Assembly: GCA_963621535.1 (NCBI GenBank)
Contig: CAVFEQ010000003.1
Location: forward strand, 5,926-69,925
Source of the DNA: Paludibacteraceae bacterium
GTDB lineage: Bacteria; Bacillota_I; Bacilli_A; RFN20; CAG-826
Direction of reading: 5' to 3'
Length of the DNA: 64,000 nucleotides
Positions 13,954 to 63,328 of the stretch are shown here, one piece after another. Position numbers and translations under genes: made by a program. Below the pieces are notes generated by a model. It made no database searches, was not told the DNA's origin, and saw only the letters and a list, made by a program, of their open reading frames with translations. How positions within the stretch are numbered: position 1 is the first letter of the stretch; each line of letters starts with the position of its first letter.

Positions 13954-13961
13954 GGAAAGGG

Positions 13962-16469
13962 ATGGTTATGAACATGAAAAACAACAAATTCGGTAAACGC
14001 ATTTACTTTGTCGCCCTTTTGCTCCCCTGCATCTGCGCCTGTTCCAACTCCGGAAGCAAAGGAGGGGACGAGCCGCTTGCTGTCTATGAAGGCAAGGACT
14101 TCCATTTCTCTTCCAGCAAAGGCGATGACCTTGATTGCCTTAACGAACTCAATAAGCGGATGCTCCGCTATGACGAAGACACGCGGGTCGGGGATATCGA
14201 GATTCCTGAAGGGGTCGCGTTCAACATGGGTTGGGAGACTTCAGCCCTTGTTTGGCATAACGCCACCGAGGAAGGGGTCGGCAAAGACTGCTTCTCACCC
14301 ATTTACAGCTTCCTCCAAAATGCCGGGCAAGATGATTACGGCTATGTTTACGACCTAAGCCTCTTCCGCGAATCCAGTTTTCAAGTCAACAACTCAGGGC
14401 TTTGGAACCTCCCTCAGGGATGGCCTTTCCCCTATTGGAAAACCTCCGTCGACAATCTTCTCACCGATTCCGCGGATTACGACAACGTCCATTTCACGAC
14501 CTTCGAATTTGACTCGGCCAACGAACCAACGAGCAAAAACTGGGAATGCGAGAACGGGAAGGCGGAGATTGGCTACGACGGCTATATGAACCTCTCTTTG
14601 GATTCCTCCATCGAAAAAGGGAAATCCTTGACCGTCACGAACACCCGCTTAAGCGACTACCTTCGCCTGTGCGGAGGCATCGATACCACGCACGCCTCCT
14701 TCATTGAGATCGACCTTGATTTTTCTTCCACGAATCTCGACGATTTCTATTTCCTTTGGCAGACAAAAGAGGGGGGCGACACTTGGTATCGCGCCTCAAG
14801 CAAAGAATACATGACGGTCTATAACGATTCTTTCGCTTCTTATGGCGCCCACACCTACTGGCCGATGTACCTTGATGAGAACTGGGCCGGCAAGACCGTG
14901 ACTTCCATCGGAATCGAGTTCGCCCCGAAAGAAGGCGAAGCGTTGAACCTAAGCAACGCGCGCATCAATTACATTCGCCCCGCCTACGATACCCGTCAGC
15001 CACAATTCACATTCCAGTGGCTCGACTCTTTCTATGATTACGTCGTCTACAAAAGGGATCTCGACGCTTTGACGAAGCTCATGCCCAAGGCGCGGAGGGC
15101 GCTTCTTAATCTCACCCACTGCCTCAAAGGCGAATCCGGCCTTTTGAATTTGGACTACCTTTATGGCCATAACGGCATCGGGACCACGATCAACGAGGAT
15201 GGCACGCTGGAGATTCATCCTGGGCAAGGGATCGGCTCAAGCTATTGGGACGTCCTTGCTCTCCCTACCATCAACCTTGAATCCAACGCCTACTTCTATG
15301 GCTGCGTCAAGAAGATGGCCGTCTTGGAGAAAGCCTGCGAAGATTACAACCTGGACATCGAAGGCACTTCCATCAAAAACCGTTCCCTAGGCCAGGAGAA
15401 AGTCGTCTACGACTACACTTCCAGCAAGCTCACCGAGCTCGCCTCGCTCATCAAAGCGACGTTTGAAAAAGACATAAAACCCGCGCAGCAAGCCGATGGA
15501 AGCTGGGTGAATGAGGGAGGGCTTTGGAACCCTGCGACCGGGCGTTTCGCCTTGGGGGTGAGGGAAAGCGATGGCGCTATCCTCGACCATGGCTACATCT
15601 ACTTCAATGAGCAAGCGATCTGCGCAGGCTTAGGGAGTTCCTCCCAGCGCCTTTCGACGATGAATTGGATCGACGGGAAAAGGATCGTTGAAGGAGATGA
15701 TTCCACCGGAGAGGACATCTATTTCTACGAATTCGCCCCCCGCTTCACAACCAAAGACAACAGCGAGCAAATCAATTTCACTTTGGTGAACACTTTCTTT
15801 GAAGAGGGCGGCTATTACGATGAATACGGCAGCCTTTTCTCTAGGCAAGTCCAATGCGGAGGGGCCGTCCTCTGCTGGAGCTATTATGACCTCCTCGCCC
15901 GCGCAGAGGTTCTTGGAAGAGAGAACGCCTTAAGCCGCCTTGAAGGAGTCGCCTCTTGGTATAAGAAAGTCCAAGAGGGAACAAGCGGGACAGGCACGGA
16001 TTTCTTCGCCGACTATTATGAGATCTTAGAAAGCGAGGATTGGAAAGGATATTACGTCCTGCAAAACGCGGAGGGCGGAGGCCCTGGCGCACTTGGCCTA
16101 GACGGGGAATTCCTTGAAAACAGCCTCTTCGCGCGCTCGCTTCCTAGCGCAATCCTCGGGATGGAGGTCGATTCCTTCGATCATCTAAGCTTCTGCAACG
16201 ATTCTTTAGAGGGGCTAAACGCGATCCGCGCGGACAACCTTAAATTCGGAAACGCGACTTATAGCGTGAAAATGGACGCCACCTCCTTTGAAATCTCTAA
16301 CCTCAAAGGAGGCGTGTTCGAGAAAACAAAGCTTTCCCTTCGCTTCAAAAAGCCTGGTGGCAGTTTCACCGTGGAAGTCGATGGGAAAATAAGCACGGAT
16401 TATGCAGTTGAAGGCGACTATATCTCTATGGAGCTGCCTTTAACGAATATCGTGGTAAACGTAAAATAA
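13962..16469 (+). CDS. large predicted lipoprotein of unknown family (possible extracellular glycan-active enzyme)
   Basis: Start chosen at ATG 13962, after AGGAAAGGG. The N-terminus MVMNMKNNKFGKRIYFVALLLPCICACSNSG looks like a lipoprotein signal. No family motif recognised by eye. It is the first gene of the carbohydrate operon. Confidence 0.6.
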   Translation: MVMNMKNNKFGKRIYFVALLLPCICACSNSGSKGGDEPLAVYEGKDFHFSSSKGDDLDCLNELNKRMLRYDEDTRVGDIEIPEGVAFNMGWETSALVWHNATEEGVGKDCFSPIYSFLQNAGQDDYGYVYDLSLFRESSFQVNNSGLWNLPQGWPFPYWKTSVDNLLTDSADYDNVHFTTFEFDSANEPTSKNWECENGKAEIGYDGYMNLSLDSSIEKGKSLTVTNTRLSDYLRLCGGIDTTHASFIEIDLDFSSTNLDDFYFLWQTKEGGDTWYRASSKEYMTVYNDSFASYGAHTYWPMYLDENWAGKTVTSIGIEFAPKEGEALNLSNARINYIRPAYDTRQPQFTFQWLDSFYDYVVYKRDLDALTKLMPKARRALLNLTHCLKGESGLLNLDYLYGHNGIGTTINEDGTLEIHPGQGIGSSYWDVLALPTINLESNAYFYGCVKKMAVLEKACEDYNLDIEGTSIKNRSLGQEKVVYDYTSSKLTELASLIKATFEKDIKPAQQADGSWVNEGGLWNPATGRFALGVRESDGAILDHGYIYFNEQAICAGLGSSSQRLSTMNWIDGKRIVEGDDSTGEDIYFYEFAPRFTTKDNSEQINFTLVNTFFEEGGYYDEYGSLFSRQVQCGGAVLCWSYYDLLARAEVLGRENALSRLEGVASWYKKVQEGTSGTGTDFFADYYEILESEDWKGYYVLQNAEGGGPGALGLDGEFLENSLFARSLPSAILGMEVDSFDHLSFCNDSLEGLNAIRADNLKFGNATYSVKMDATSFEISNLKGGVFEKTKLSLRFKKPGGSFTVEVDGKISTDYAVEGDYISMELPLTNIVVNVK

Positions 16470-39664: not shown

Positions 39665-41428
39665 TTATCCTCTTTTCTTAGATTTGCGGGAAAGCACGAC
39701 TTGCGAGATCAAGGTCTGGACCATCGACATCAAGCCGCCGATGAGCCAGTAAATGCCCATGGCCGCCGGCAGCATGAAACCCATGAAGATGGTGAAGATC
39801 AGCATGACGATCATCATGATCTTCCCTTGCTTGTTGGCGTCATTCGCCGCGGGGTTCTTACCCATTTTGCTGATGTTTTTCGTCTTCATCTTGGCGATGA
39901 TGCGCGGAAGCATCATGGCCATGATCTGGACCCCGGCCATCAAGACGAAGAGAACCAAAGCGGTCCACCATCCGCTGGTATTGGCATACCAGGTCCCGGA
40001 GACGTTGAACAAAGTCTCGCGAATGGTGTCAGACAGACGCAGATTGAGCATCTGGCCTGAGGATAGCGCGGCGCTTCCTTGCAAGCCCGACCACACGCAG
40101 ATGAAGACCGGGAATTGGATGATCAGCACCAAGAACTGGCTGAGCGGATTGATTTTGTTGCGGCGGTAAAGGGCCATTTGCTCTTGGCTCAGGCGTGCCT
40201 TATCCGCTTGATTGGTGTTGGAATTAGGATATTTCTCCTGCAGTTTCGCAAGCTGAGGCTGCAGATTCTGCATTTTCTGCTGATCAAGCGTGCTCTTGAA
40301 GGTCGCGGCCATAAGAAGCAGACGCACGATCACCGTAACGAAGACCAAAGCAAGCAGCTGGCTCCACCCGGCAAGAGAGGAATCCATCCCGAAGGCGAAG
40401 GTATCGACCATCCAGGAAATCGGATAGACCAAAAGCCCCTCGAGGAAGCCTTTGCTCCAAGCATATCCCCAATCCTTGGCTTCGATGTTGACTTCCCAGT
40501 CGCGGCTTGGGCCATAATGACCATAGGTTCCGCTGCGGGTCGCAATGCAGGTGCTGATGCTGCTGACCTTGGATTGGATGTTGTTCTTATAAGCGGTCAA
40601 GAACGTGGAAGTCGGGCAGCCGTCAATCCCTAAGCCGGCGTCAATGGACTGCTGCAAAGAGGTGCACCATGAATCAAAGTAGCCGAACAAGGCGCTGTTG
40701 ATGCCCGAGAATTTCAAATAGCCGTAGCGGCGGAAAAGCGAATGGTCGTAATCGATGGAGGTGGCATCGCTTCCATCGGTGTCGCTTTCGATGTAGGGAT
40801 TGATGTAGAAAGTCCCTTCTTCAGAAGCGATCGCCTCGGCTTTGTTCTTGTCCTCGGTTTTATCGCCTGTAGAAGAGGCAATTTTCAAAGAGGATTCGAA
40901 ACTTGCGACTGCGCTAGAATAATCCGCCGTGGAGGTGTAGCCAGAGGAGATGATATTCTTCTCATAAGCCCCTTGCACGAGAGCTGCTTTCAATGCGTAA
41001 TCATCGATCGCCGCCCAGAATTGGATTGAGGGCAAAGCGTAGCCGCTTTTAGCAGCGCTAGTTAAAATCGTCCCTTGCAAGAGGGAGGAGGCTTTTTTGG
41101 CGGTATAGGTGTAGACCGTCCCGCTTTTGGTGGCGGGGACGTACTTATAGATGTCGTCGTTATTCTCGAGAGCTTTCCCAGCGACGGTGGTGTTCCCGAT
41201 GACCATGCTCTCTTCTTCTTCGATGAGGGCTTTGGTGGACTCATTGGTTTTTAAAGCGTCATATTCGTCTTTTGTGACGTAGACAGTAACGCCCTGTTCG
41301 TAGGGATAAAGCATTTGGGCCTTATCGGTATCGGAACAGAAATTCTGCGTGCACGAAGAAAGAAGCAAAGCGGCGAGTCCGACGCCTGCGATCCCCAGCA
41401 GTTTCTTTTTCGAGTTGTGCTTATTCAA
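39665..41428 (-). CDS. yidC: membrane protein insertase YidC/Oxa1 with long N-terminal lipoprotein extension
   Basis: 587 aa. Lipobox LLSSC. A low-complexity Ser/Thr/Ala/Tyr-rich domain of about 330 aa is extracytoplasmic. The YidC core is at the C-terminus, with a basic tail RKSKKRG. Confidence 0.8.
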   Translation of the reverse strand: MNKHNSKKKLLGIAGVGLAALLLSSCTQNFCSDTDKAQMLYPYEQGVTVYVTKDEYDALKTNESTKALIEEEESMVIGNTTVAGKALENNDDIYKYVPATKSGTVYTYTAKKASSLLQGTILTSAAKSGYALPSIQFWAAIDDYALKAALVQGAYEKNIISSGYTSTADYSSAVASFESSLKIASSTGDKTEDKNKAEAIASEEGTFYINPYIESDTDGSDATSIDYDHSLFRRYGYLKFSGINSALFGYFDSWCTSLQQSIDAGLGIDGCPTSTFLTAYKNNIQSKVSSISTCIATRSGTYGHYGPSRDWEVNIEAKDWGYAWSKGFLEGLLVYPISWMVDTFAFGMDSSLAGWSQLLALVFVTVIVRLLLMAATFKSTLDQQKMQNLQPQLAKLQEKYPNSNTNQADKARLSQEQMALYRRNKINPLSQFLVLIIQFPVFICVWSGLQGSAALSSGQMLNLRLSDTIRETLFNVSGTWYANTSGWWTALVLFVLMAGVQIMAMMLPRIIAKMKTKNISKMGKNPAANDANKQGKIMMIVMLIFTIFMGFMLPAAMGIYWLIGGLMSMVQTLISQVVLSRKSKKRG

Positions 41429-42059: not shown

Positions 42060-42360
42060 AAAATAGTTTCAATCCACAGACCTTGGGAAAAGCCTTGTTA
42101 AAAAAGAGGATAAAAAGGAAAAGAGGCGATGCCCTTGCGCTTTTTTCAAAAGCCAGGGAAGTGAAGGAAGAAGTAAGCGTTACCGTTTTTCCACAAAGCA
42201 AAAAACCGCCTAAAGTTTTCCACAATTTGTCCACATTTTCATTTTGTGGAAAACCAAAATAAAGGCGATTGCTAGCCTTTTCCGTCCTTGGATTGTGGAC
42301 AAATCAAAATTGCGCTCATTTTTAATGAAAAGCACTGTGGAAAATGCTTTAATCTTGTGC
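42060..42360. other. oriC, upstream DnaA-box cluster
   Basis: Seven or more 9-mers within two mismatches of TTATCCACA. Plus-strand boxes at 42071, 42187, 42216 and 42227; complementary-strand boxes at 42245, 42294 and 42336. Located in the rpmH-dnaA intergenic region. Confidence 0.8.
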
Positions 42361-51193: not shown

Positions 51194-52192
51194 TTGATGA
51201 AGGTTTGCATCCATTTTCCTCACCTTCATGGCGCAGACGCTTTCGAGAGCACCCGGCTTAGGAAGACTCTTAAAGGCGCCTGCGAATCCGTGGACATCGC
51301 CTGGGAGGAGGAGCCTTCCTCCTCCACGGAGATCGCCCACTTCTTCTCGCCTTTAGACGAAAAGCTGCTTTTGAAATGCAAAAAGAAGGGCATCAAAACC
51401 GTTCTCTCTTGTTTTTATTGCGAGAACGATTTCCGGGCCGCCTTTTTGCAAGATAAGCAGGGAGAGAAAAAAATCGGCGAAAAAGCCGTGCGTATGATGA
51501 ATGAGGCCGATCTTGTCTTCGTGCCAACAGAAGGCCTAGCTTCCTTAGCGCGTAACGAGGGGGTCACCAGCAAAATCAAGGTTTTGGATGTTGGCGTCAA
51601 TTTGGACCGCTTTTCTTCGAAATCCGTGGAGGCGAACATCTTCCCCCGCTACTTCAGAGTGAGGCCGGATGAGAAGTTCGTCGTGTGCGTCGGCTCCTAT
51701 GAAGACGAGAAGACTTTGACGGCTCTAAAGAAGATTGCCTCGCTCACGCCGAAGATAACCTTCTATTTCTTCGGGTCAAAACGCCGCTTCCCCTTCTATT
51801 TCGGCTTACGAAAATACAAAAAAGATTCGCCTTCGAACTTGATTTATGAGCCGATTGTGGAGGATGACGTCTATCGTAGCGCCTTGATGCACTGCCTTGC
51901 TTATCTATTGCTTGATGATGAGCACCCCGATCAAATGGCTTTGATGGATGCTTTTGCTTCTGGGGCGGAGGTCGTCGCTATCGGCGAGCAAAAGGCGAAT
52001 CCGATTTTAGAAAACGGCAAGAATTGCTTGCTGTTCAAAGACGAGAAAGAGGCTTCGCTTGGCCTTGCTCGTCTCTACCTTGAAAAAGATAAGGCGATTA
52101 TAATGGCGGGGTACGCCATCGCGGAACGCTGCGCGTTACCTTGCTTTGCAAAGCAACTGAAAGAAGCTTACGAAGAGACGTTACAAAACTAA
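51194..52192 (+). CDS. GT-B fold glycosyltransferase (GT4-like)
   Basis: 332 aa. C-terminal sugar-donor-binding motif ALMDAFASGAEVVAIGE. 4-nt gap after gyrA and 9 nt before serS. Confidence 0.6.
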   Translation: MMKVCIHFPHLHGADAFESTRLRKTLKGACESVDIAWEEEPSSSTEIAHFFSPLDEKLLLKCKKKGIKTVLSCFYCENDFRAAFLQDKQGEKKIGEKAVRMMNEADLVFVPTEGLASLARNEGVTSKIKVLDVGVNLDRFSSKSVEANIFPRYFRVRPDEKFVVCVGSYEDEKTLTALKKIASLTPKITFYFFGSKRRFPFYFGLRKYKKDSPSNLIYEPIVEDDVYRSALMHCLAYLLLDDEHPDQMALMDAFASGAEVVAIGEQKANPILENGKNCLLFKDEKEASLGLARLYLEKDKAIIMAGYAIAERCALPCFAKQLKEAYEETLQN

Positions 52193-53845: not shown

Positions 53846-55219
53846 ATGGTTATTCAAAGAAAAGCATACAAAGAATTGGCAAAATGGAAAAATGGCTCCG
53901 ATAAAGGGAAAGCTGTTTTGATAAAGGGGGCCAGACGAGTCGGCAAAAGCTTCCTGGCCGAAGAGTTTGCTAAAAACGAGTATAAAAGTTACATCTTGAT
54001 CGATTTTTCCAGCCCATTGAATGGCACTTTGCAGACCTTCCAAAAATATGGGAACAAGTACAGCCTAGATGAATTTTTCAACCAACTTTCCGTTATATAT
54101 TCAACCCCTCTTTACAGAAGGCAATCTGTTTTCGTTTTTGACGAGGTTCAACGATTTCCAAAGGCGAGGGAATTGATAAAACATCTTGTCGCGGATGGGA
54201 GGTACGATTTCATCGAAACGGGTTCTTTAATAACGATAAAGAAGAACGCGAAAGATATCTTGATTCCATCTGAAGAAGAAGAAATTTCGATGTATCCTTT
54301 GGATTTTGAAGAATTTCTCACCGCTATAGGCGACCAAGTGACTTATCCGACTTTGAAGCAAGCTTATGAAGATCGGAAACCGCTTGGGAATATCCTCAAG
54401 GCTGTGAATGAAAAATTACGACTTTACATGATCATCGGAGGGATGCCGCAGGCTGTCTTGAAATATATCGAAACAAGAAACTATGACGATGTCGAAAAAA
54501 CAAAGAGGAGCATCGTTGGGCTTTATAGAAAAGACATCGTTAAATACGCTGAAGGTTATGTTGCCGAAGCAACCGCGGTGTTCAATGCAATCCCCTCTCA
54601 ACTTTCTCACCATGATAAAAAGATCAAGTATTCATCGCTTAATGAAGGCGACCGTTTTTCGCGCTACAGGGACGCACTTAATTGGATAAACGATTCAATG
54701 GTCGGGCTATTGTGCTATGGATTAGATGAGCCTGGTGCTTTGGATGGTTTTTCGCTGCAAACGAACAAAATTAAATGTTATATGGCGGACACTGGGCTTT
54801 TGCTTACCTTGGCTTCCGGAAACGATTATCTTGGAAGTGAATTCTATAAGTCTTTCGTGCTTGGAAAACTTTCGATCAATAAAGGAATGATGACGGAAAA
54901 CCTAATCGCCCAGATTTTCGCCTCGAATGGCAGGCCTCTGAGATTTTACGAAAACTCCGTTAAGAAAAAGACGAAGCTTGATGAAAGTAATGAAAGAGAA
55001 AAAATCACAAAGCACGAAGTTGATTTTCTTATAAAGCAAAACGGAAAAACTACACCCGTGGAGGTCAAAAGCGGAAATCTCAAAGAACACGCGTCCTTAG
55101 ATTACTTCTTCGATCGTTTCAAAGAGAAAACGAATAAGCCTATCGTTCTGACAAAAGGAGATCTGAAGGAAACGGAAGATTATACGTATCTTCCTTTGCC
55201 GATGGCATATTTCTTGTAA
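53846..55219 (+). CDS. AAA+ ATPase with DUF4143-type C-terminal domain (COG1373 family)
   Basis: 457 aa. Walker A GARRVGKS and Walker B VFVFDEVQ. About 40% GC versus about 52% in the flanks. Confidence 0.75.
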   Translation: MVIQRKAYKELAKWKNGSDKGKAVLIKGARRVGKSFLAEEFAKNEYKSYILIDFSSPLNGTLQTFQKYGNKYSLDEFFNQLSVIYSTPLYRRQSVFVFDEVQRFPKARELIKHLVADGRYDFIETGSLITIKKNAKDILIPSEEEEISMYPLDFEEFLTAIGDQVTYPTLKQAYEDRKPLGNILKAVNEKLRLYMIIGGMPQAVLKYIETRNYDDVEKTKRSIVGLYRKDIVKYAEGYVAEATAVFNAIPSQLSHHDKKIKYSSLNEGDRFSRYRDALNWINDSMVGLLCYGLDEPGALDGFSLQTNKIKCYMADTGLLLTLASGNDYLGSEFYKSFVLGKLSINKGMMTENLIAQIFASNGRPLRFYENSVKKKTKLDESNEREKITKHEVDFLIKQNGKTTPVEVKSGNLKEHASLDYFFDRFKEKTNKPIVLTKGDLKETEDYTYLPLPMAYFL

Positions 55220-55315
55220 TGACGGAGCGTAACCTAAATAGTTTAATTGAATTCTGCTTCTAGGTGGCGCAAGAGAAAACTTAATGCGTTATCTATAGGT
55301 TTTGCTATAATCCTA

Positions 55316-55404
55316 GTGCCATCGCGAGAGATGAGCGACGAACCAGGTCAGGTGGGGAACCAAGCAGCCTTAAATCGTTTGCCCCTGTGCGGTGGTTTTT
55401 TTAT
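55316..55404 (+). ncRNA. ffs: signal recognition particle RNA, short 4.5S-type
   Basis: TATAAT at 55306-55311. Helix-8/domain-IV motif ACCAGGUCAGGU-GGGGAACC-AAGCAGCC matches E. coli ACCAGGUCAGGUCCGGAAGGAAGCAGCC. The GGAA tetraloop-closing pairs are swapped (GG/CC instead of CC/GG), a compensatory covariation. The 5' and 3' ends pair (CCAUCGCGAG with CUGUGCGGUGG). A U-run terminates it. Upstream of tadA. Confidence 0.65.
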
Positions 55405-55414
55405 TATTAGACCC

Positions 55415-55879
55415 ATGGATAAGAAAACAGATATTGCCTTTATGCTTGAGGCCCTAAAAGAAGCACAACTGGCTTATGACGCTGGAGAAGTGCCTGTTGG
55501 AGCAGTTGTAGTTCGAAACGGGGAAATTATCGGCAGAGGCCACAACGAACGAGAGAAAGATCTCGATATTTCCTCTCATGCCGAGATAAACGCCCTAAAA
55601 GAGGCGTCGAAGACACTTAGAAGATGGGATTTAAGCGACTGTTCGCTTTATGTCACTTTAGAGCCTTGCTTAATGTGCGCCGGAGCTATCCTACAAAGCA
55701 AAATTCGCTTTCTGAGTTTTGGAACTTTGGATAAAAAAGCGGGCGCAATTTTGTCAATTTATCATGTCTTCGATACAAATAAAGCATACATGCCCCCGTT
55801 AATTGACAAAGGGCTGTGCGAGGCCTTGTGTTCTGGAATTTTGACGAGATTTTTCACTGAAAAACTGAGATCAAAATAA
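55415..55879 (+). CDS. tadA: tRNA-specific adenosine deaminase
   Basis: Start at ATG 55415 (MDKKTD). CDA zinc motifs HAEINAL and PCLMCAGAI. Confidence 0.9.
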   Translation: MDKKTDIAFMLEALKEAQLAYDAGEVPVGAVVVRNGEIIGRGHNEREKDLDISSHAEINALKEASKTLRRWDLSDCSLYVTLEPCLMCAGAILQSKIRFLSFGTLDKKAGAILSIYHVFDTNKAYMPPLIDKGLCEALCSGILTRFFTEKLRSK

Positions 55880-56011
55880 GCGTCGTTAGCTTCCTTGCCT
55901 CTTTTAAATGGGAAGGCTTTCGCAGGCTCTCCTTTGTTAGCGTTTTACAAAGTCTTTACTTTGTCTAATAAAGCAAAAAAATCTAGCGCGTTATTGAAGA
56001 GATGATATATT

Positions 56012-58927
56012 TTGTTCATGGACCAAAAAAGCGCGTTAAAACTCGATTCACCCCAGGAATTGATCCGCCTGGAACATGTTTTTAAAGAGTATGAGTTTGA
56101 TGGAAAACCATTTTACGCGCTCAAAGATGTCACTCTTTCTTTTCCTTCAAAAGGCATGATCGCCGTATTGGGTCCATCTGGTTGCGGGAAGACAACTTTG
56201 CTTAATTTAATGGCTGGTTTTGACCGAAAATTCTCCGGAAATATTTATATTGATGGTGTTTCTGGCACTGATTTGAAGAAAAAGGATTGGGACGTGTATC
56301 GAAATTCCAAAATAGGCTTCGTTTTTCAAAACTATAATTTAGTCAATTATCGTAATGTAATTCACAACGTCGAACTGCCCTTACAGCTTTCCGGCGTAGG
56401 GAAGAAGAAGCGCAAGGCTTTAGCTCTTGATGCTCTAAAAAAAGTTGGTCTTGAAGGCTTTCAAAAGAAAAAAGTCACCCAGATGTCCGGCGGGCAGCTT
56501 CAGAGAGTGGCCATTGCTAGAGCAATCGTTAATAACCCGTCTTTTATACTTGCAGATGAACCAACTGGAGCTTTGGATTCGGAATCCTCTAAATTGGTTT
56601 TGAACGTCTTAAAAGAGATCTCTCGCGAGAGACTGGTTGTTTTGGTTACTCATAACGAAGAGCTTGCTAACCTTTACGCAGATCGCATTGTTCGAATGAG
56701 AGACGGCCAGATTGTTTCTGACGATTTGCGTTCACCTTGCTCTTGCGATGTTTCTAGCAAGAACGTTGAATCTGTTGAGAAGAAGTTTAAATCTGGCGCT
56801 CTTTCTACTGGCTCCGTCCTTGTTTCCTGCTTTGAAAATCTTGGCCATAAAAAAGTTAGAACGATTCTCACCGCTCTTTCCTGCTCTTTTGGAATCCTGG
56901 GTGTCGCTTTGGTTTTGGCTATTAATAACGGCTTTTCCGGATACGTTGAATCCGTTGAACGTTCTGTGGCTAACTCCGTCCCTATTTCTCTTTCCCCTGT
57001 AACAACAAGGACTCACTACGAAAGCGTAGAAGAGCTTCCTGAGTATCCTGAGGATGAAATCGTCAACGTTTACGATTCTAGAAAGTCTTTCTCCGAGACG
57101 GTTTACAACAACTTCTCCAATGAATACTTCTCCTATTTAGATCAGATCATGGATGACCCCTCTTGCTCAGCTTACGGGTCTGCAATGTCGGTGATGTACT
57201 ATAGGAAAAGCCTTAATTATCACTTCTTGAAAGAAGATCCTTCCGGGACGATTCGGGAAATCAACCAATATACAAACGCCAAATCATCTACCTATACGAT
57301 TGCCTCTTTGACTTCGCTTCCCGGCACCGTGCTTCATGAAATGTATGGGGACGAGGAAAATATGTCTTCCCTTTATGACACCATCGCGGGCAAATTTCCT
57401 ACAGAATCCAATGAACTAGCCCTCATCCTCGATTCTTATAACCGCATCGATTTCTCTACCATGAAAGCGCTCGGCTTTTATGACTCCGACGCCACTCTTG
57501 GCGATGGCAATAAGACCTTGACCTTCGAGGATATGCTTAACGCCGAGTTCAAATGCTATACGAACTCTTCTTTTTACGGGGTCTCTTCCCTTGGAGACTT
57601 AGAAGAGAAAACCGTATCCCTTGGCCAAGACGCCTATTCGAAGCTCTCCGTTTCCATAAAAGACGATGACAAAGATGGGACGTATGAAGCGGTGGTGAGT
57701 GACGAAGATTCTTCAAACCATACGAAGGCTTGCAAAGCCATAGAGACGCCCAAAACCGAGGACGTTTATAAAGACGATACGACATATAAGCCGATAAAAT
57801 GCAAGATTGTCGGTATATTGCGCCCCGTTAAAGGCTCATACCTTCAGCTCATGCCTTCTTCCTTAGCTTACACCCCGGCCCTAAGCAAACTGATGGTCGC
57901 CGATCAGCAAAGCGAGATAACCAAAAAGCTGGCTGAATACCAAAAAGGGAACTGGATAATCCCTTATTCCGAAAGCGGAGACGGCAAAGACAAACTGCAG
58001 AAAGCCTTTGACAATTTGGCGCAAGCGATAACAAAACTCAAAGCAGGCACCAGCTTCGATGATGTGGCCGGCGAATTGTCGAACTTCAAAAGCTACTTAA
58101 ATGGCGCATTTCGCTTTATCTCCGCTACAGGGCATAGGAACGCTAAGACAGGATCGTTCAGTTACACTTACACGACGGGCGTATCTACTTATATGTCTTG
58201 GTGCAAAAACCTGGGCGCGGAGTTTGGAACCATGGATTTCCAATCGATGGTGCTAGAAGCTGCCTTGAACGATTCCATCACGCTGGGCTATGACTTCTTT
58301 GACGGCACGGGCGAGACCAATATCATTGATACTATAGGTTCTTTAAACTCCTACGCTCTGGTTGATTCGATTCTGATCTTCCCGACCTCATTAACGAGCA
58401 AAACGACTTTGAAATCCTATCTCGATGCTTGGAACACCTCTCATCCGGATGCGCGCAACGACTACATCGACATTATGTCTGATTTCACGGGAGAGATAGG
58501 GACCCTGGTTCAGATTGTTTCGATCATATTAGTTATTTTCGCTTCCATATCGTTGCTGGTTTCTTCAATCATGACCGCCATCATCACCTATGTCTCCGTC
58601 GTGGAGCGAACCAAGGAAATCGGCATATTGAGGGCTTGCGGGGCTAAAAGGTTAGATATCGCTAGGCTCTTCGAGTCCGAATGCCTATTCATTGGGTTGG
58701 TGGCAGGCTGCGTCGGTGTTGCCTTAACTTGCCTCGCCTGCATCCCGGTGAACCAGGTCCTCAATAGCCTCTTCCCCTCCAATAATTTGGGCCAAATCGC
58801 GCAGCTAAGCCCCGCCCACGCGTTTATCCTCATAGCCGTTTCGGCTTTACTCGCCTTCCTAAGTGGGCTTTTTCCTTCCCAGATTGCTGCCCGGAAGGAT
58901 CCCGTTGTTTGTTTAAGGAGTGAATAA
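56012..58927 (+). CDS. fused ABC ATPase / FtsX-family permease (MacB-like) with a very large extracytoplasmic domain
   Basis: 971 aa. N-terminal ABC ATPase (GPSGCGKTT, LSGGQLQRVAIARA, ILADEPTGALD). TM1 near residue 290, an extracytoplasmic segment of about 560 aa, and C-terminal FtsX TMs with RTKEIGILRACGAKR. Confidence 0.75.
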   Translation: MFMDQKSALKLDSPQELIRLEHVFKEYEFDGKPFYALKDVTLSFPSKGMIAVLGPSGCGKTTLLNLMAGFDRKFSGNIYIDGVSGTDLKKKDWDVYRNSKIGFVFQNYNLVNYRNVIHNVELPLQLSGVGKKKRKALALDALKKVGLEGFQKKKVTQMSGGQLQRVAIARAIVNNPSFILADEPTGALDSESSKLVLNVLKEISRERLVVLVTHNEELANLYADRIVRMRDGQIVSDDLRSPCSCDVSSKNVESVEKKFKSGALSTGSVLVSCFENLGHKKVRTILTALSCSFGILGVALVLAINNGFSGYVESVERSVANSVPISLSPVTTRTHYESVEELPEYPEDEIVNVYDSRKSFSETVYNNFSNEYFSYLDQIMDDPSCSAYGSAMSVMYYRKSLNYHFLKEDPSGTIREINQYTNAKSSTYTIASLTSLPGTVLHEMYGDEENMSSLYDTIAGKFPTESNELALILDSYNRIDFSTMKALGFYDSDATLGDGNKTLTFEDMLNAEFKCYTNSSFYGVSSLGDLEEKTVSLGQDAYSKLSVSIKDDDKDGTYEAVVSDEDSSNHTKACKAIETPKTEDVYKDDTTYKPIKCKIVGILRPVKGSYLQLMPSSLAYTPALSKLMVADQQSEITKKLAEYQKGNWIIPYSESGDGKDKLQKAFDNLAQAITKLKAGTSFDDVAGELSNFKSYLNGAFRFISATGHRNAKTGSFSYTYTTGVSTYMSWCKNLGAEFGTMDFQSMVLEAALNDSITLGYDFFDGTGETNIIDTIGSLNSYALVDSILIFPTSLTSKTTLKSYLDAWNTSHPDARNDYIDIMSDFTGEIGTLVQIVSIILVIFASISLLVSSIMTAIITYVSVVERTKEIGILRACGAKRLDIARLFESECLFIGLVAGCVGVALTCLACIPVNQVLNSLFPSNNLGQIAQLSPAHAFILIAVSALLAFLSGLFPSQIAARKDPVVCLRSE

Positions 58928-58938
58928 GGAGTTTATCT

Positions 58939-59496
58939 ATGATCACCGAAGCCAAATTTAAGTACGCCTTAAAAAGCATGATGGAGACGATGCCTCTAGA
59001 AGACATCAACGTCACCGCCTTATGCGAGAAGTGCAAGTGCCATAGGCAAACCTTTTATTACCATTACCAAGATATCTACGATTTGATCGCGGCCATCTTT
59101 CTGAACGAGGATCTAACAAGCGTCACTAACGCCAAAGATACTAAAAAAACCCTGACCGCTTTTCTAAGCTATGCGAAAAACAATTTCTCCTTCTTGCGTT
59201 CCACCTATAACTCAGCCGGGAGGGACCTCACCGACGACTTTATTTACGGGAAGATCAACGCGAAGCTCTTTACCCTTTGGGTTGGGGATGAGGCCATAGG
59301 GCTTAAGAAAGAAGGGGTGCGGAACGCCGCCAGGCGTTTCTCACGCCTTTTCGCGGACGAATTTGGCTACTATCTCAAAGATCAAAAGCTGACCCCAGAA
59401 CGCTTCGTCCATCATATGAACAAATTCATCGATAATGCGATCAACATCCTTTTGCCCGCCATCATCGCCCTATCGAAGAAGGAGGAGACAAAATGA
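58939..59496 (+). CDS. TetR-like transcriptional regulator (DhaS/YfiR-type)
   Basis: 185 aa. N-terminal HTH-like EDINVTALCEKCKCHRQTFYYHYQDIYDL. 4-nt overlap with the downstream ADH. Confidence 0.55.
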   Translation: MITEAKFKYALKSMMETMPLEDINVTALCEKCKCHRQTFYYHYQDIYDLIAAIFLNEDLTSVTNAKDTKKTLTAFLSYAKNNFSFLRSTYNSAGRDLTDDFIYGKINAKLFTLWVGDEAIGLKKEGVRNAARRFSRLFADEFGYYLKDQKLTPERFVHHMNKFIDNAINILLPAIIALSKKEETK

Positions 59497-60668
59497 TCGA
59501 TTTTGACTTCGTCGCTCCAACGCGCATTATCTTTGGTCGCTCCGCCGAGAAGCGTTTGTCTGAATTGCTCAGCGCATACAACGTTCATTCCGTTTTGCTC
59601 GTTTATGGTGGTGGATCCATCAAAAGAAGCGGCTTATATGACGCGGTTATCGAGCAGCTAAACCTTGCAAAAGTCACGTTTTTTGAAATTAGCGGAATCC
59701 GCGCAAATCCAACGAAAGAGTCGGTTTTTGCGGGGATAAATATCTTAAGAGAGCACCCTTGCGATCTGATCTTGGCCGTCGGTGGGGGCTCGGTGATCGA
59801 TGCGGCGAAATCCATGGGCGTTGGCTATTACTATGACGGCGAACCCTTTGATTTCAATCTCAAGAAAGCGACCCCTTCGAAGACTCTTCCTCTTGGCGTT
59901 ATTTTGACTATTTCTAGCGCCGGGAGCGAAATGTCCAACTCCTGCGTCATCTCCGATGATGCGAGTGGCATAAAGCTCGGGTTCAACAACGACCTTATTC
60001 GTCCCTTATTCGCCTTGGAGAACCCCGAGCTGACCTTCACGGTTTCTCCCTACCAAACCGCGGTTGGCTTCTCTGACATCATCATGCATTCTTTGGAACG
60101 CTATTGCGGCGAGTCTGACGCGCTTCAACTGGCGGATGAGTGGGCTTTGGATCTCATCAAGAACACGATGGAAGCGGGCAAGAGGGCCTTAGCCAATCCT
60201 GAGGATTACGAAGCCCGCGCCGCCTTGATGCTTAATAGTTCCTTATCGCATAACGGCTATACCGGCATCGGGAAACGCTGCCCATTCGTCGTGCATCCTT
60301 TAGAGCACGCTTTAAGCGGCTATCGCCCTGATATCCCTCACGGGGCAGGCGTCGCCTTGCTTTATTCGGCCTGGGCAAGCTACGTTTGCAGCAAAGCCCC
60401 GGCGAAGTTCGCCTATCTAACTAAGCGTATTTTCAATTTGGAAGCGAAAACGGAATTAGAAACGGCTATAATGGGCGTCGCGGCAATGAAAGACTTCTTT
60501 CATTCCGTTGGAATGCCCACCTCGTTTGCCGAAGTCGGGATCACCAAAAACGACATCCCAAGCCTCGTTCGGTTAGCTAGCGGTAATGGAACACGTGTGA
60601 TTGGCCTTTACCCCCAATCACTGAATGAGCAGGACATCGAAAATATCTATATGAGCCTGCTTTCCTAG
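59493..60668 (+). CDS. iron-containing alcohol dehydrogenase
   Basis: 391 aa. GGGSVIDAAK NAD-binding motif. Metal-binding His residues (HPLEHAL, HGAG). Confidence 0.85.
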   Translation: MIDFDFVAPTRIIFGRSAEKRLSELLSAYNVHSVLLVYGGGSIKRSGLYDAVIEQLNLAKVTFFEISGIRANPTKESVFAGINILREHPCDLILAVGGGSVIDAAKSMGVGYYYDGEPFDFNLKKATPSKTLPLGVILTISSAGSEMSNSCVISDDASGIKLGFNNDLIRPLFALENPELTFTVSPYQTAVGFSDIIMHSLERYCGESDALQLADEWALDLIKNTMEAGKRALANPEDYEARAALMLNSSLSHNGYTGIGKRCPFVVHPLEHALSGYRPDIPHGAGVALLYSAWASYVCSKAPAKFAYLTKRIFNLEAKTELETAIMGVAAMKDFFHSVGMPTSFAEVGITKNDIPSLVRLASGNGTRVIGLYPQSLNEQDIENIYMSLLS

Positions 60669-60689
60669 TTCAGGAGGCTTCCTTCGCTT

Positions 60690-61871
60690 ATGAATGAAAT
60701 TACAAAGAAAAACGATTTCGCCACGTTCTTGGTGTATCTTGGGATGTTCGCCATCGCCTTGCTCGTGGGGCTTTTAGTCATCTCTCCTGCGATCAGGGCG
60801 AATAACATCGCCACCCCGACTGCCATTGTCATCGTGGTGATTTCCGTCCTTGTCGGAGTCATCTTCAATAGCGCCTCCCTCGAGCTTCTTCATATGCTCG
60901 GCGCCGCCGCGGGCGGATATAAGATCCTCAGCGTCTGCATCCTTAGCCTTACCTTCAAAAAGAAGGGGAAAGACGGGAAAAGATTTGTTTTCGCTAGCTT
61001 CGACGGTTTGACCGGCGAGACCAAGATCGTGCCTAAAGACGTTGAGAAATCCTCGCCAAGCGGCATCGTTTTCTTCCCGATGCTTGGCTATCTTTTGGAA
61101 GTCGTTATCCTCTTGATTCTCTCCGCTTGTCTTTCCTCTTATCTCCCCTGGTTCCCCATCGCTTGCTATGTCGTTTTGGCGATCGGCGGCATGATTTTCG
61201 TCTATAACGATTTTCCAGCGCATCTAGACTCCGTGACGGATGGCTATTTGCTTATCTTGCTCACGAAGCCCATCAACCGCATCGCCTATAACCAGATCCT
61301 TGTCGCGGAGAGGAGCGAAAACAAGGAAGAGGCCCTTGCCTCGCTTCCGATTTACGAAGAGCTTTCTGACTTCACCGCGACCCTTAACACCCTCGCCGCC
61401 TACCGCTTGATTTTAAAAGGCGATAACGAAGGGGCCTTGCGCATCTTCACCAAAATCTGCGAGGCGGAGAAAAACGTCAGCAAATCCGTCCGCGAAGAAG
61501 CGCTTTGCCAGCGTCTTGCCTTGTTGCTTCTAATGGAAAAGAAACAAGAGGCCAAAGACTTCTACGAAGGGATGGACGACGCCATGCGCAGGTACATCGC
61601 TTCCTTAGCAAATCTGCCGGCGCTTCGCTGCTACGCCCTCGTCGCAGGCATCGTCGAAGAAAGCGATACCGAAGTGAGCTGGGCCTTCGACAAGGTCGAG
61701 CGCCTTCAAAAGAAGGTCTCCGGAGTGATTCTTCAAGGCGAGAACAAACTTCTCAATGATTCCTTTTTCTATTTGAAAAAGATGCATCCTGGCTGGGACA
61801 TCCAAGCCGATTTCATCGATCATCAAAATAGCGAAGAGAAGAAAGAAGAAAAGAACACCGAAAACAAATAA
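60690..61871 (+). CDS. hypothetical membrane protein (N-terminal ~4 TM helices plus C-terminal helical/TPR-like cytoplasmic domain)
   Basis: 393 aa. Hydrophobic segments up to about residue 200, then a charged helical domain. No catalytic motif seen. Confidence 0.4.
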   Translation: MNEITKKNDFATFLVYLGMFAIALLVGLLVISPAIRANNIATPTAIVIVVISVLVGVIFNSASLELLHMLGAAAGGYKILSVCILSLTFKKKGKDGKRFVFASFDGLTGETKIVPKDVEKSSPSGIVFFPMLGYLLEVVILLILSACLSSYLPWFPIACYVVLAIGGMIFVYNDFPAHLDSVTDGYLLILLTKPINRIAYNQILVAERSENKEEALASLPIYEELSDFTATLNTLAAYRLILKGDNEGALRIFTKICEAEKNVSKSVREEALCQRLALLLLMEKKQEAKDFYEGMDDAMRRYIASLANLPALRCYALVAGIVEESDTEVSWAFDKVERLQKKVSGVILQGENKLLNDSFFYLKKMHPGWDIQADFIDHQNSEEKKEEKNTENK

Positions 61872-61892
61872 AGCGGGCCGACGCCCGCTTTA
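61872..61892. terminator. bidirectional terminator GCGGGC-cgac-GCCCGC flanked by A-run and T-run
   Basis: aaataaaGCGGGCcgacGCCCGCtttatt between convergent genes. Confidence 0.7.
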
Positions 61893-62138
61893 TTCATTAA
61901 CTAGGAAATTGTATTTGATGGCCTCGCCGTCGAATATCTTCGCCTTAAGAAATTCTGCCTTCACCTCATCCTCGCCCTGTCCCCACACATCGAAAACGAC
62001 CTCGTCGTCTTTTCCCTTATCGATTCTCCTAGTGTATATCTCATCAATGATCTCCGCGGGATATTTGCGGATTCTCTTGTGCATTGGTTTTTTCCTTCTC
62101 GAGACCCCAACAAACTTCGCGCCAATTGGTGAAGCCAT
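61890..62138 (-). CDS. hypothetical small protein
   Basis: 82-aa ORF following the terminator. No recognisable domain. An overlapping plus-strand ORF makes the call uncertain. Confidence 0.3.
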   Translation of the reverse strand: MASPIGAKFVGVSRRKKPMHKRIRKYPAEIIDEIYTRRIDKGKDDEVVFDVWGQGEDEVKAEFLKAKIFDGEAIKYNFLVNE

Positions 62139-62266
62139 TTAGGCAGAGAGTCGCCTCGTTAAACTCACTTAAAAAGAGGAGTACTATCCTTTTTTCTCTA
62201 CTTGGATCGGTGTCCGTTGCAAAAAGCCGTGCAAATCAATTAATTAATAATAGGCGATAGGATACG

Positions 62267-63328
62267 CTACTTGATGATTTTATAACGTCTAATTCTTTTA
62301 TGAACAATCATTGGTTCTAAGAATCCATTGTTCGATAACTCAGAACACCAATTAATAATTGTTCTATTTGTAACATTCATTTTCTGAGACATTTCAATCG
62401 GGGTGAATGCTACGACATTATTCTTTGAAAGATAATCAAGAAACAATTTTGCTTTGCTAGATAGATGAGACAGCCGCTCATTAGCGTTATCTTTTGTTTC
62501 GCTTTCAGCGATCGATAATACTTTATTGCTATATAGATTAAATACCTTTAAGAAATACTTAATCCATATTTCTGGATGTGGTGGGTTATTTCTCCCCTCA
62601 TAATAAAGAACCGGTAAGTCCATCTGCAAAGATCGATAATATTCTTCAATGTCGTATGAGATATATTCTTCTAATGAGCCTATATTTTTAAACCCATATC
62701 CACATAAAGATAGATAATAAGAAGACATTATTCTAGCTGTTCTACCATTGCCGTCTTCAAATGGGTGGACAGTCACTAACTGGTAATGAATAGTCGCGGC
62801 TTTAATTAACGGATGATCACTGGAAGAATTAACGTAATTAAATAATTCGTTCAACAAAGATGGCACTTCATTATATTCAGGCGGAATATATGCAGGAGTG
62901 CGGTCTTCGTTCCACACCGCGAATAAAACGCCTGGAGGCATTGAACCTCTAAGGCCAATCTTTTCTTTTGGCTCACCATCGCAAATTTGTTTTTGAACTT
63001 CTAGCAACAATTCAATAGATAGAGGCTCTTTCTTTTCTAATTTATTTTCTAGAAGGTCTAACGCTAAATAATAATTTCTTATTTCTTGTTCAGGTTTTAA
63101 AAAATGCCTATTTTTAGTTTCTATAGCCGCCTCAGCTTGTTCGTATGTTAAAGGATTACCTTCTATTCTATTAGAGGCATATGAAGTTCTTTTCTTAGTA
63201 TTTTTTCGAAATTTATTAGAGATATTAATTGGAATCTTAATCAAATCTAAAGAATCCTTATTCTTTTCTATAGCAAGAATTGAATTTAAGATTTCATTAT
63301 CGATAGTGACTTTGATCATAGAATGCAC
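62267..63328 (-). CDS. Fic-family protein (AMPylase-type, class II with N-terminal inhibitory SxxxEG motif)
   Basis: 353 aa. Fic motif HPFEDGNGRTAR. SNRIEGN upstream of the core matches the [S/T]xxxE[G/N] inhibitory motif. C-terminal winged-HTH-like tail. About 33% GC. The track start is GTG 63328; ATG 63319 is an alternative. Confidence 0.85.
   Translation of the reverse strand: MHSMIKVTIDNEILNSILAIEKNKDSLDLIKIPINISNKFRKNTKKRTSYASNRIEGNPLTYEQAEAAIETKNRHFLKPEQEIRNYYLALDLLENKLEKKEPLSIELLLEVQKQICDGEPKEKIGLRGSMPPGVLFAVWNEDRTPAYIPPEYNEVPSLLNELFNYVNSSSDHPLIKAATIHYQLVTVHPFEDGNGRTARIMSSYYLSLCGYGFKNIGSLEEYISYDIEEYYRSLQMDLPVLYYEGRNNPPHPEIWIKYFLKVFNLYSNKVLSIAESETKDNANERLSHLSSKAKLFLDYLSKNNVVAFTPIEMSQKMNVTNRTIINWCSELSNNGFLEPMIVHKRIRRYKIIK

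Follow-up and report, generated by a model that had tools for sequence, protein, structure and literature searches.

A fused MacB/FtsX-type ABC protein with a very large extracytoplasmic domain represents an unstudied family in Gram-positive bacteria

Background

ABC (ATP-binding cassette) systems of type VII carry out ATP-powered work outside the membrane, with roles that include lipoprotein release, efflux, hydrolase activation and peptide resistance, and to our knowledge it is the outer domain that decides the job in each of the cases studied. In MacB this domain measures around 200 amino acids (aa). Here we describe a protein of this kind, 971 aa long, that is encoded in a stretch of 64,000 nucleotides (the window) from contig CAVFEQ010000003.1 of a Paludibacteraceae bacterium, an organism placed by GTDB in the Bacilli_A. 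An ABC ATPase and an FtsX-type permease are joined in this protein (hereafter, the window protein) into a single polypeptide with an outer domain of about 515 aa. The machine is familiar but the outer domain is not, and it is this domain that marks a large, unstudied family.

Several described systems provide a frame of reference. MacB (PDB 5lil, 5nik, 5gko) shares with the window protein an ATPase fused N-terminally to a permease of the FtsX type with four transmembrane (TM) segments, a large domain separating TM1 from TM2, and long TM1/TM2 stalk helices. As part of MacAB-TolC, however, it operates with a MacA-type adaptor and an outer-membrane duct, whereas the present locus has no adaptor gene and belongs to a Bacilli lineage in which no outer membrane is expected. 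YtrEF (9o9x), the pneumococcal Spr0693-0695 system (5xu1) and YknXYZ are type VII permeases of Firmicutes and, as here, dispense with an outer membrane; unlike the window protein, they have the ATPase and the permease as separate proteins, outer domains of normal size and, often, an adaptor (YknX, Spr0693). LolCDE (9rlc, 7arh) differs in being a Gram-negative system with a LolC/LolE heterodimer, a separate LolD and a LolA chaperone, but it is an extractor working at the outer leaflet, and we favor the same working model for the window protein. Also close are fused proteins of about 795 aa from Paenibacillus, Saccharibacillus, [Clostridium] fimetarium, Herbinix and metagenome-assembled genomes (MAGs) of Clostridia, which present the same architecture and a homologous outer-domain core.

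Domain organization and structural model

The initial annotation of this locus, made by eye, had described a single open reading frame (ORF) of 971 codons with an N-terminal ABC cassette, one TM segment, a large external segment and a C-terminal FtsX module with three TM segments, a topology likened to that of MacB. Pfam and hydropathy agree with this layout. Residues 37-185 match ABC_tran (E 1.7e-30), residues 842-964 match FtsX (E 3e-17), and hydropathy, by which the MacB-like topology was borne out, places TM1 at about residues 282-309 and three further TM segments at about 824-865, 886-918 and 929-960. The external segment is indeed very large, yet it spans about 515 aa (residues ~310-823) instead of the ~560 aa first proposed. 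The first codon of the ORF is TTG, and the ATG found two codons on, at position 56018, is likely to be the true start. Walker A (GPSGCGKTT), the signature (SGGQ), Walker B (ADEPT) and the H-loop are all intact, and since their residues are invariant in an alignment of 39 homologues, the cassette should be an active ATPase.

The assignment to a particular described protein is less straightforward. The N-terminal NCBIfam matches to MacB, LolD and FtsE-like families all lie under the equivalog cut-offs, with scores of 239 against 966 for MacB, 173 against 308 for LolD and 177 against 265 for FtsE. In profile searches against the PDB, the best solved relative by sequence is MacB (E 2e-99), and the alignment with 5lil covers profile positions 5-295 (ATPase and TM1) and 806-959 (TM2 to TM4) with nothing between. 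The sequence likeness to MacB ends, therefore, right after TM1 and returns just before TM2.

An AlphaFold2 (AF2) model of residues 277-971, with a predicted local distance difference test score (pLDDT) of 81.5, depicts TM1 as one helix of 45 residues and TM2 as one helix of 55 residues, the helices of the FtsX module being at model positions 545-599, 604-644 and 658-685. These long TM1 and TM2 helices would thus form the stalk arrangement that is typical of MacB-type proteins. When the model, which comprises the TM segments and the outer domain, was compared by Foldseek with the PDB at E<=1e-3, solely type VII permeases were retrieved (LolE/LolC, MacB, YtrF and the pneumococcal Spr0695-type 5xu1). 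LolE was the top match, and MacB, YtrF and 5xu1 were among the best; FtsX, HrtB and YbbP were matched as well, but below that threshold. The protein therefore combines an intact ABC ATPase with a permease of four TM segments that carries an FtsX module at its C-terminus and a big domain between TM1 and TM2, and its predicted structure has both the TM1/TM2 stalk helices and a fold like that of solved members. It is a MacB/FtsX-type (type VII: MacB/LolCDE/YtrEF/FtsEX) ABC protein, the TM part of which models as a mechanotransducer.

Other identities were considered for the protein and rejected. A MacAB-TolC pump was ruled out by the missing adaptor gene and by the outer membrane not being expected here, and a BceAB-type transporter by the number of TM segments (four, against ten) and by the fact that no kinase or regulator gene of that type lies nearby, either in the window or in close relatives. 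FtsEX does not fit a fused protein with an outer domain of this size, a sub-threshold FtsE score and no adjacent partner gene. LolCDE is set aside likewise, the LolD score falling short of its curated threshold.

A family-specific outer domain

That the outer domain is far bigger than that of MacB, as initially noted, stands at its corrected length. For the segment between TM1 and TM2 Pfam gave nothing even at E<=10, and MacB_PCD was not matched by the window protein at that threshold. Modeled in isolation, the domain (residues 323-821) is predicted by AF2 with a pLDDT of 89 and a predicted template modeling score (pTM) of 0.87, and it is bounded at either end by beta-alpha-beta elements, with a conserved alpha/beta core, a variable four-strand beta insertion (domain residues ~212-256) and a helical module (~300-460) lying between them. 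The initial annotation had contemplated either a Porter/Sabre-like or a novel domain. The isolated model returned zero Foldseek matches at E<=1e-3 in the PDB or BFVD; Porter and Sabre were not matched in that search or by hhalign, and neither were the outer domains of LolC/LolE, while those of MacB, YtrF and FtsX likewise went unmatched by Foldseek. At the sequence level, a profile of the long-form outer domain yielded only chance matches against all PDB sequences at E<=10, and a profile of the shorter form described below yielded none. Against the outer domains of E. coli MacB, LolC and LolE, both profiles obtained an hhalign probability of 0.1%, with a thin target profile of 3 sequences.

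Weak matches to MacB_PCD in 10 of 33 shorter relatives (best E 0.0023; Pfam) constitute the sole hint of kinship for this domain. In the AF2 model the flanking beta-alpha-beta units occupy the places where the MacB Porter would sit, and two conserved stretches, 'YD.I.G.YPT..NE.VLIVD.YNR' and 'KIVGVLRP...Y..LMPSS.AY', may be said, judging by eye, to recall the usual pattern of MacB-like outer domains. The outer-domain alignments were also inspected for catalytic motifs, and no enzyme-like motif common to the whole family was found. The long form invariably has H442, within 'HE(M/L)YGDE'; the short-form alignment contains no invariant histidine, and H442 is probably not conserved there. Because no motif of a catalytic type is conserved across the family, it seems more likely that the outer domain binds or extracts a substrate than that it acts as an enzyme.

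The extent of the family was gauged with a profile of the outer domain only, searched against 1.84 billion representatives with clusters at 50% identity. It retrieved 1105 clusters at E<=1e-3, of which 463 remained at E<=1e-10 and 68 at E<=1e-30. Of the complete proteins in the top 150 matches, nearly all are fusions of a nucleotide-binding domain (NBD) with four TM segments, and their outer domains range from ~330 to ~670 aa. The long form, to which the window protein belongs, accounts for more than 100 clusters of full-length homologues (920-990 aa, 38-99% identity); the few that are named come from 'Bacilli bacterium' MAGs, and three related genomes bear the labels Lachnospiraceae, Erysipelotrichaceae and Bacillales UBA1624. 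The short form, of about 760-870 aa, has an outer domain that aligns end to end with that of the window protein (hhalign probability 100%, E 3.5e-52), and a Paenibacillus permease aligns with a probability of 99.5%. Named carriers include Paenibacillus spp., Saccharibacillus, Peribacillus, Gorillibacterium, [Clostridium] fimetarium, Herbinix and many Clostridia MAGs. The outer domain is thus a family-specific structure with a core of ~340 aa, which is the whole outer domain of the ~795-aa proteins, enlarged in the window protein by some 150 aa through the beta insertion and a larger helical module.

No characterised homologue had been recognised when the locus was initially read, and the wider search did not change this, since the source names are generic throughout; 'ABC-type antimicrobial peptide transport system' is the name given by one Joint Genome Institute (JGI) source among the family matches. 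The family is widespread among Gram-positive bacteria and unstudied. B. subtilis YclHI, which adjoins the YclJK two-component system, was entertained as a named orthologue of the short form and is left here as a lead: no YclI sequence was compared, and YclHI is absent among the 120 matches listed. It is described as a type VII system of unknown function (PMC11466899).

Genomic position of the gene

The window covers a replication-origin region. The genes yidC, jag and mnmE, on the minus strand, are followed by dnaA at position 42288 (Pfam) and by ORFs of the sizes expected for dnaN, recF, gyrB and gyrA (assigned by size and by synteny with annotated relatives). After gyrA come a glycolipid-type glycosyltransferase gene, serS, the signal recognition particle (SRP) RNA and tadA, and then the ABC gene. 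Three further genes, for a TetR-like regulator, an iron-containing alcohol dehydrogenase (Fe-ADH) and a membrane protein, follow on the same strand (Table 1). Three relatives whose ABC proteins are 61-82% identical to the window protein have the same four genes adjacent, with serS and tadA also upstream and with two convergent minus-strand ORFs downstream (440 and 487-500 aa) that match tldD/pmbA in size and position. In relatives at 39-48% identity the order reads tadA, ABC gene, P-type ATPase gene, psuG (encoding pseudouridine-5'-phosphate glycosidase), TetR-like gene, alcohol dehydrogenase (ADH) gene, membrane-protein gene and, on the opposite strand, tldD/pmbA. The P-type ATPase of these more distant relatives (825-839 aa, with no specific NCBIfam subtype) is encoded just 1-4 nt after the ABC gene, and neither it nor psuG is present at this position in the window or in the closer relatives. 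One relative (locus L010) has the ABC gene, the ATPase gene, a DhaS-like gene and, at the membrane-protein position, a gene of unknown family coding for 370 aa, without any ADH gene.

We regard the ABC gene, consequently, as a constitutive core gene of a conserved, origin-adjacent array in this uncultured lineage of the gut and rumen, and its fixed core position hints that the long form has a housekeeping function. Neither adaptor nor hydrolase nor two-component genes adjoin it in the loci of this lineage, and the initial observation that a membrane-fusion partner is missing holds more broadly, with no HlyD-type gene adjoining the ABC gene, in the 53-64 kb part of the window or in eight related loci.

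Short-form relatives elsewhere have varied, unrelated neighbors. Usable gene context for this form was available from Paenibacillus and Peribacillus only. In Paenibacillus sp. JCM 10914, split ATPase and permease genes come directly after a histidine kinase gene and one for an OmpR-type regulator; the split genes of Peribacillus loiseleuriae have a divergently oriented OmpR-type regulator gene next to them. Two-component regulator genes thus accompany two of the three Bacillales loci. The split in these two genomes may be a frameshift of draft assemblies, because other Paenibacillus species have a fused form of ~796 aa.

Proposed mode of action and alternatives

Taken together, these data lead us to propose, as the probable though by no means certain interpretation, that the window protein is a fused MacB-type (type VII) mechanotransducer, probably a homodimer, that powers its large outer domain to act on a target on the membrane's outer face. 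As the cytoplasmic cassette binds and hydrolyses ATP, the long stalk helices TM1 and TM2 would shift, and this motion would be passed on to the very large outer domain, which would act at the outer face of the membrane instead of carrying a solute across the bilayer. Its most likely action would be to extract or expel an amphipathic molecule, such as a peptide, a lipid or a lipid-linked compound; alternatively, it might drive a partner protein. That the protein dimerises, transmits mechanical motion and works at the outer leaflet is proposed here from what is established for MacB, LolCDE, FtsEX, HrtBA and YbbAP (PMC5985334); the class of substrate is inferred.

Some observations weigh against this proposal. 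The literature searches returned no study of a protein of this type, and as far as they show no member of the family has been the subject of an experiment. The two-component neighbors in two Bacillales genomes hint that the short form has an inducible part in envelope stress, a role that may not extend to the window protein. Finally, the ABC gene and the three genes after it are probably co-transcribed, and some regulatory coupling between them is possible.

The best-placed alternative, which we nonetheless deem unlikely, is that the protein belongs to a resistance module against antimicrobial peptides or envelope stress (of the Bce/Ykn/Vra kind), with the outer domain recognizing a peptide or a peptide-lipid complex and freeing the target or the membrane. 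The type VII nature of the family, the single JGI name mentioned above and the two-component regulators beside the homologues of Paenibacillus sp. JCM 10914 and Peribacillus loiseleuriae all speak for it. The support from gene context is confined, however, to these two genomes, and there is no two-component system near the gene in the window or in closer relatives, where it holds a fixed core place by the origin and not one in a variable resistance island; besides, the permease has four TM segments and BceB has ten.

A still less probable reading follows the initial annotation, which considered that the genes could be one sensing, export or detoxification unit around the ADH: the ABC protein would handle a substrate, the resulting aldehyde or alcohol would be dealt with by the Fe-ADH, and control of the set would fall to the TetR-like protein. 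The genes are close-set on the same strand, as had been noted, but they number four in total, with three and not four following the ABC gene, and from one to the next there is a gap of 11 nt, an overlap of 4 nt and a gap of 21 nt. Given this tight spacing and a single terminator at the end, they likely form one transcript here, and they are also adjacent in the three relatives at 61-82% identity. They do not, however, make up a conserved unit beyond these relatives. At 39-48% identity the P-type ATPase gene and psuG intervene between the ABC and TetR-like genes, with the ATPase gene nearly abutting the ABC gene; one relative lacks the ADH gene and has a 370-aa gene of unknown family at the place of that for the membrane protein; and the short-form relatives elsewhere have unrelated genes around them. 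Moreover, the housekeeping flanks (gyrBA, serS, tadA and tldD/pmbA) are equally syntenic, and the adjacency carries little functional weight for that reason. 

The simplest reading is that a long array, shared across the lineage, has lost the ATPase gene and psuG here, the ABC gene being next to the TetR-like, ADH and membrane-protein genes because these two separating genes are absent. Judging from gene order, what lasts as a unit would be the TetR-like gene and the gene behind it, usually along with that for the ADH, rather than the pair of ABC and ADH genes. The proximity of the ABC gene to the regulator and the ADH looks like an accident of gene order that implies no shared function, and the case illustrates how close same-strand spacing can mislead, with an apparent operon that is most simply explained by gene loss in a syntenic array.

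An FtsEX-like role, in which the outer domain would bind and switch on an extracellular enzyme (e.g. a cell-wall hydrolase) in growth or division, would explain a conserved core gene near the origin and agrees with its fixed place across deep divergence, with the sub-threshold FtsX fold matches and with a helical module that could conceivably serve as a docking surface, but it is as improbable as the four-gene unit in view of the low FtsE score, the lack of an adjacent hydrolase or coiled-coil partner gene in any locus read, and the much smaller outer domains of FtsX, which the isolated outer-domain model did not match.

Returning to the mechanotransducer proposal, one may ask what task such a machine would serve. 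It is conceivable, if rather doubtful, that the ~340-670-aa outer domain is a new fold defining a separate class of type VII mechanotransducers in Firmicutes, and that it serves the envelope in an essential way in the small-genome gut and rumen Bacilli bearing its longest form; there it might, for example, handle lipoproteins, membrane glycolipids or precursors linked to lipid at the outer leaflet, and might do so in concert with the P-type ATPase whose gene comes next in most of the lineage. The outer domain described here stands in any case for more than 1000 sequence clusters, with a confident model, no match to a solved structure and no studied member. The cultured hosts of the family (Paenibacillus species and at least one Clostridia species, [Clostridium] fimetarium) make its function directly testable, and a functional result would extend the short list of jobs ascribed to MacB-type machines.

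Downstream genes and transcription signals

Table 1. Coordinates of the ABC gene, its encoded domains and associated features. Positions refer to the window, except where a related locus is named by its L number.
Feature	Position	Strand	Evidence
Gene for 971-aa fused ABC ATPase/FtsX-type permease	56012..58927	+	ORF list, Pfam, full-length homologues
Nucleotide-binding domain, residues ~17-240	56060..56731	+	Pfam, NCBIfam, invariant columns, MacB 5lil alignment
TM1 and outward helical extension (stalk), residues 278-322	56843..56977	+	Hydropathy; AF2 single 45-residue helix (model 2-46)
Extracytoplasmic domain, residues 323-821	56978..58474	+	AF2 model; no match in Pfam, PDB or Foldseek
FtsX module: TM2 (55-residue helix), TM3, TM4, stop codon	58475..58927	+	Pfam FtsX, AF2, MacB 5lil alignment
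185-aa DhaS-type TetR-family regulator	58939..59496	+	NCBIfam below cut-off, PDB profile matches
391-aa iron-containing alcohol dehydrogenase, closest to YqhD-like	59493..60668	+	Pfam, NCBIfam
393-aa membrane protein	60690..61871	+	Hydropathy; alignment with five relatives
Bidirectional intrinsic-terminator hairpin, 12-bp stem, 4-nt loop	61867..61894	both	RNA folding
P-type cation ATPase (usually then psuG) after ABC gene	L007 10954-14395; L009 10951-14327; L011 10892-14282; L010 10771-13260
Split short form: ATPase 280-293 aa and permease 460-485 aa	L019 4852-9458; L018 6264-9383

The regulator gene starts 11 nt past the ABC stop codon and is preceded by an AAGGAG ribosome-binding site. Its TetR-like label proves sound: family libraries match it below threshold only (in NCBIfam DhaS, TIGR02366, with E 6e-13 and 49 of the 129 bits required; in Pfam TetR_C_8 at just E 0.012), but solved regulators of the DhaS type, 4mk6 (E 3e-9) and 2iu5 (E 5e-7), are clearly matched by its profile. 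The regulator is unusually conserved, at 56-64% identity where the ABC protein shows 41-48% and the membrane protein 35-41%. The ADH gene start overlaps the regulator stop by 4 nt. Its product was correctly read as an Fe-ADH, with both Pfam domains above their curated cut-offs (Fe-ADH, E 2.2e-41, 141.7 bits against 31.3; ADH_Fe_C, E 1.2e-26, 94.1 bits against 27). No NCBIfam equivalog cut-off is reached by this protein (PRK15138, 208 bits against 645).

The last gene begins after a gap of 21 nt and encodes a protein with a hydrophobic N-terminal half (hydropathy peaks at ~8-68 and 123-175) and a soluble C-terminal part. The tetratricopeptide repeats (TPR) initially ascribed to it were not confirmed, as no Pfam family, TPR included, is matched at E<=10, and neither NCBIfam nor PDB sequences provide a match. 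Two motifs, E65-x-x-H68-x-x-G-A and N-x-x-P176-x-x-L-D-S-x-x-D-G, are kept in all six aligned proteins, and by eye they are reminiscent of two motifs of the site-2 (M50) proteases, HExxH and NxxPxxxLDG, except that the first histidine is replaced by Leu or Ile. On these motifs, and with family libraries silent, the protein may be a degenerate or atypical relative of intramembrane proteases.

The strong bidirectional terminator proposed at the end of the array is a fair description, given that the hairpin folds on both strands, with -18.7 kcal/mol on the plus strand and -24.2 kcal/mol on the minus strand (z ~-6 for both, none of 200 shuffles being as stable); it separates the four genes from a convergent small ORF. 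Upstream of the ABC gene, a TTTACA-16 nt-TAATAA sequence at 55944-55971 is a candidate promoter by eye that fails the rule of the promoter scan, which itself found 11 sites against 12.1 expected from shuffled sequence, and thus no excess. Rfam detected no riboswitch or leader near these genes.

Additional features of the window

Immediately upstream of the ABC gene, a small bacterial SRP RNA (Rfam RF00169, 55.5 bits, E 1.9e-9) occupies positions 55311-55409 on the plus strand, inside the 5' part of ORF 55247-55879. Because of this overlap, the true start of tadA is probably near 55415 (MDKKTD...); the deaminase matches of Pfam in this ORF begin at residue 60. Between serS and the SRP RNA lies a plus-strand gene for an AAA_14/DUF4143 ATPase (53846-55219), with a G+C content of ~0.39-0.42 against ~0.50 on either side, which looks inserted, since related loci L001-L003, L007 and L010 have no gene of that size there. 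On the other side of the array, a minus-strand stretch (61890-63328) of G+C content 0.34-0.43, with an 82-aa ORF (61890-62138) and a gene for a Fic-domain protein (62267-63328), separates the membrane-protein gene from the C-terminal end of a PmbA/TldD-type gene, recognized by eye at the window edge. Genes at the tldD/pmbA position follow directly in L002, L003, L007 and L011, and the stretch with the Fic gene looks like an inserted cassette.

The glycosyltransferase gene of the gyrA-serS interval (51194-52192, plus strand, 332 aa) matches IagA/BgsA (E 8e-36) and Dgs (E 2.5e-25), both below cut-off, which are glycolipid-anchor and diacylglycerol glucosyltransferases. It is syntenic in most relatives, suggesting that this origin-proximal array also encodes the synthesis of membrane glycolipids. 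Farther away, at 11602-16469 on the plus strand, two large ORFs of 783 and 866 aa with overlapping ends have no Pfam match at E<=1e-5; directly downstream are genes for a sugar ABC importer (a substrate-binding protein and two permeases), a GFO/IDH oxidoreductase, a lacto-N-biose phosphorylase, a rhamnosidase-like protein, a nucleoside hydrolase and a PfkB kinase. Lastly, the YidC homologue of the origin region (39665-41428, minus strand, 587 aa) matches 60KD_IMP only at residues 359-574 and carries an N-terminal extension of about 350 aa.

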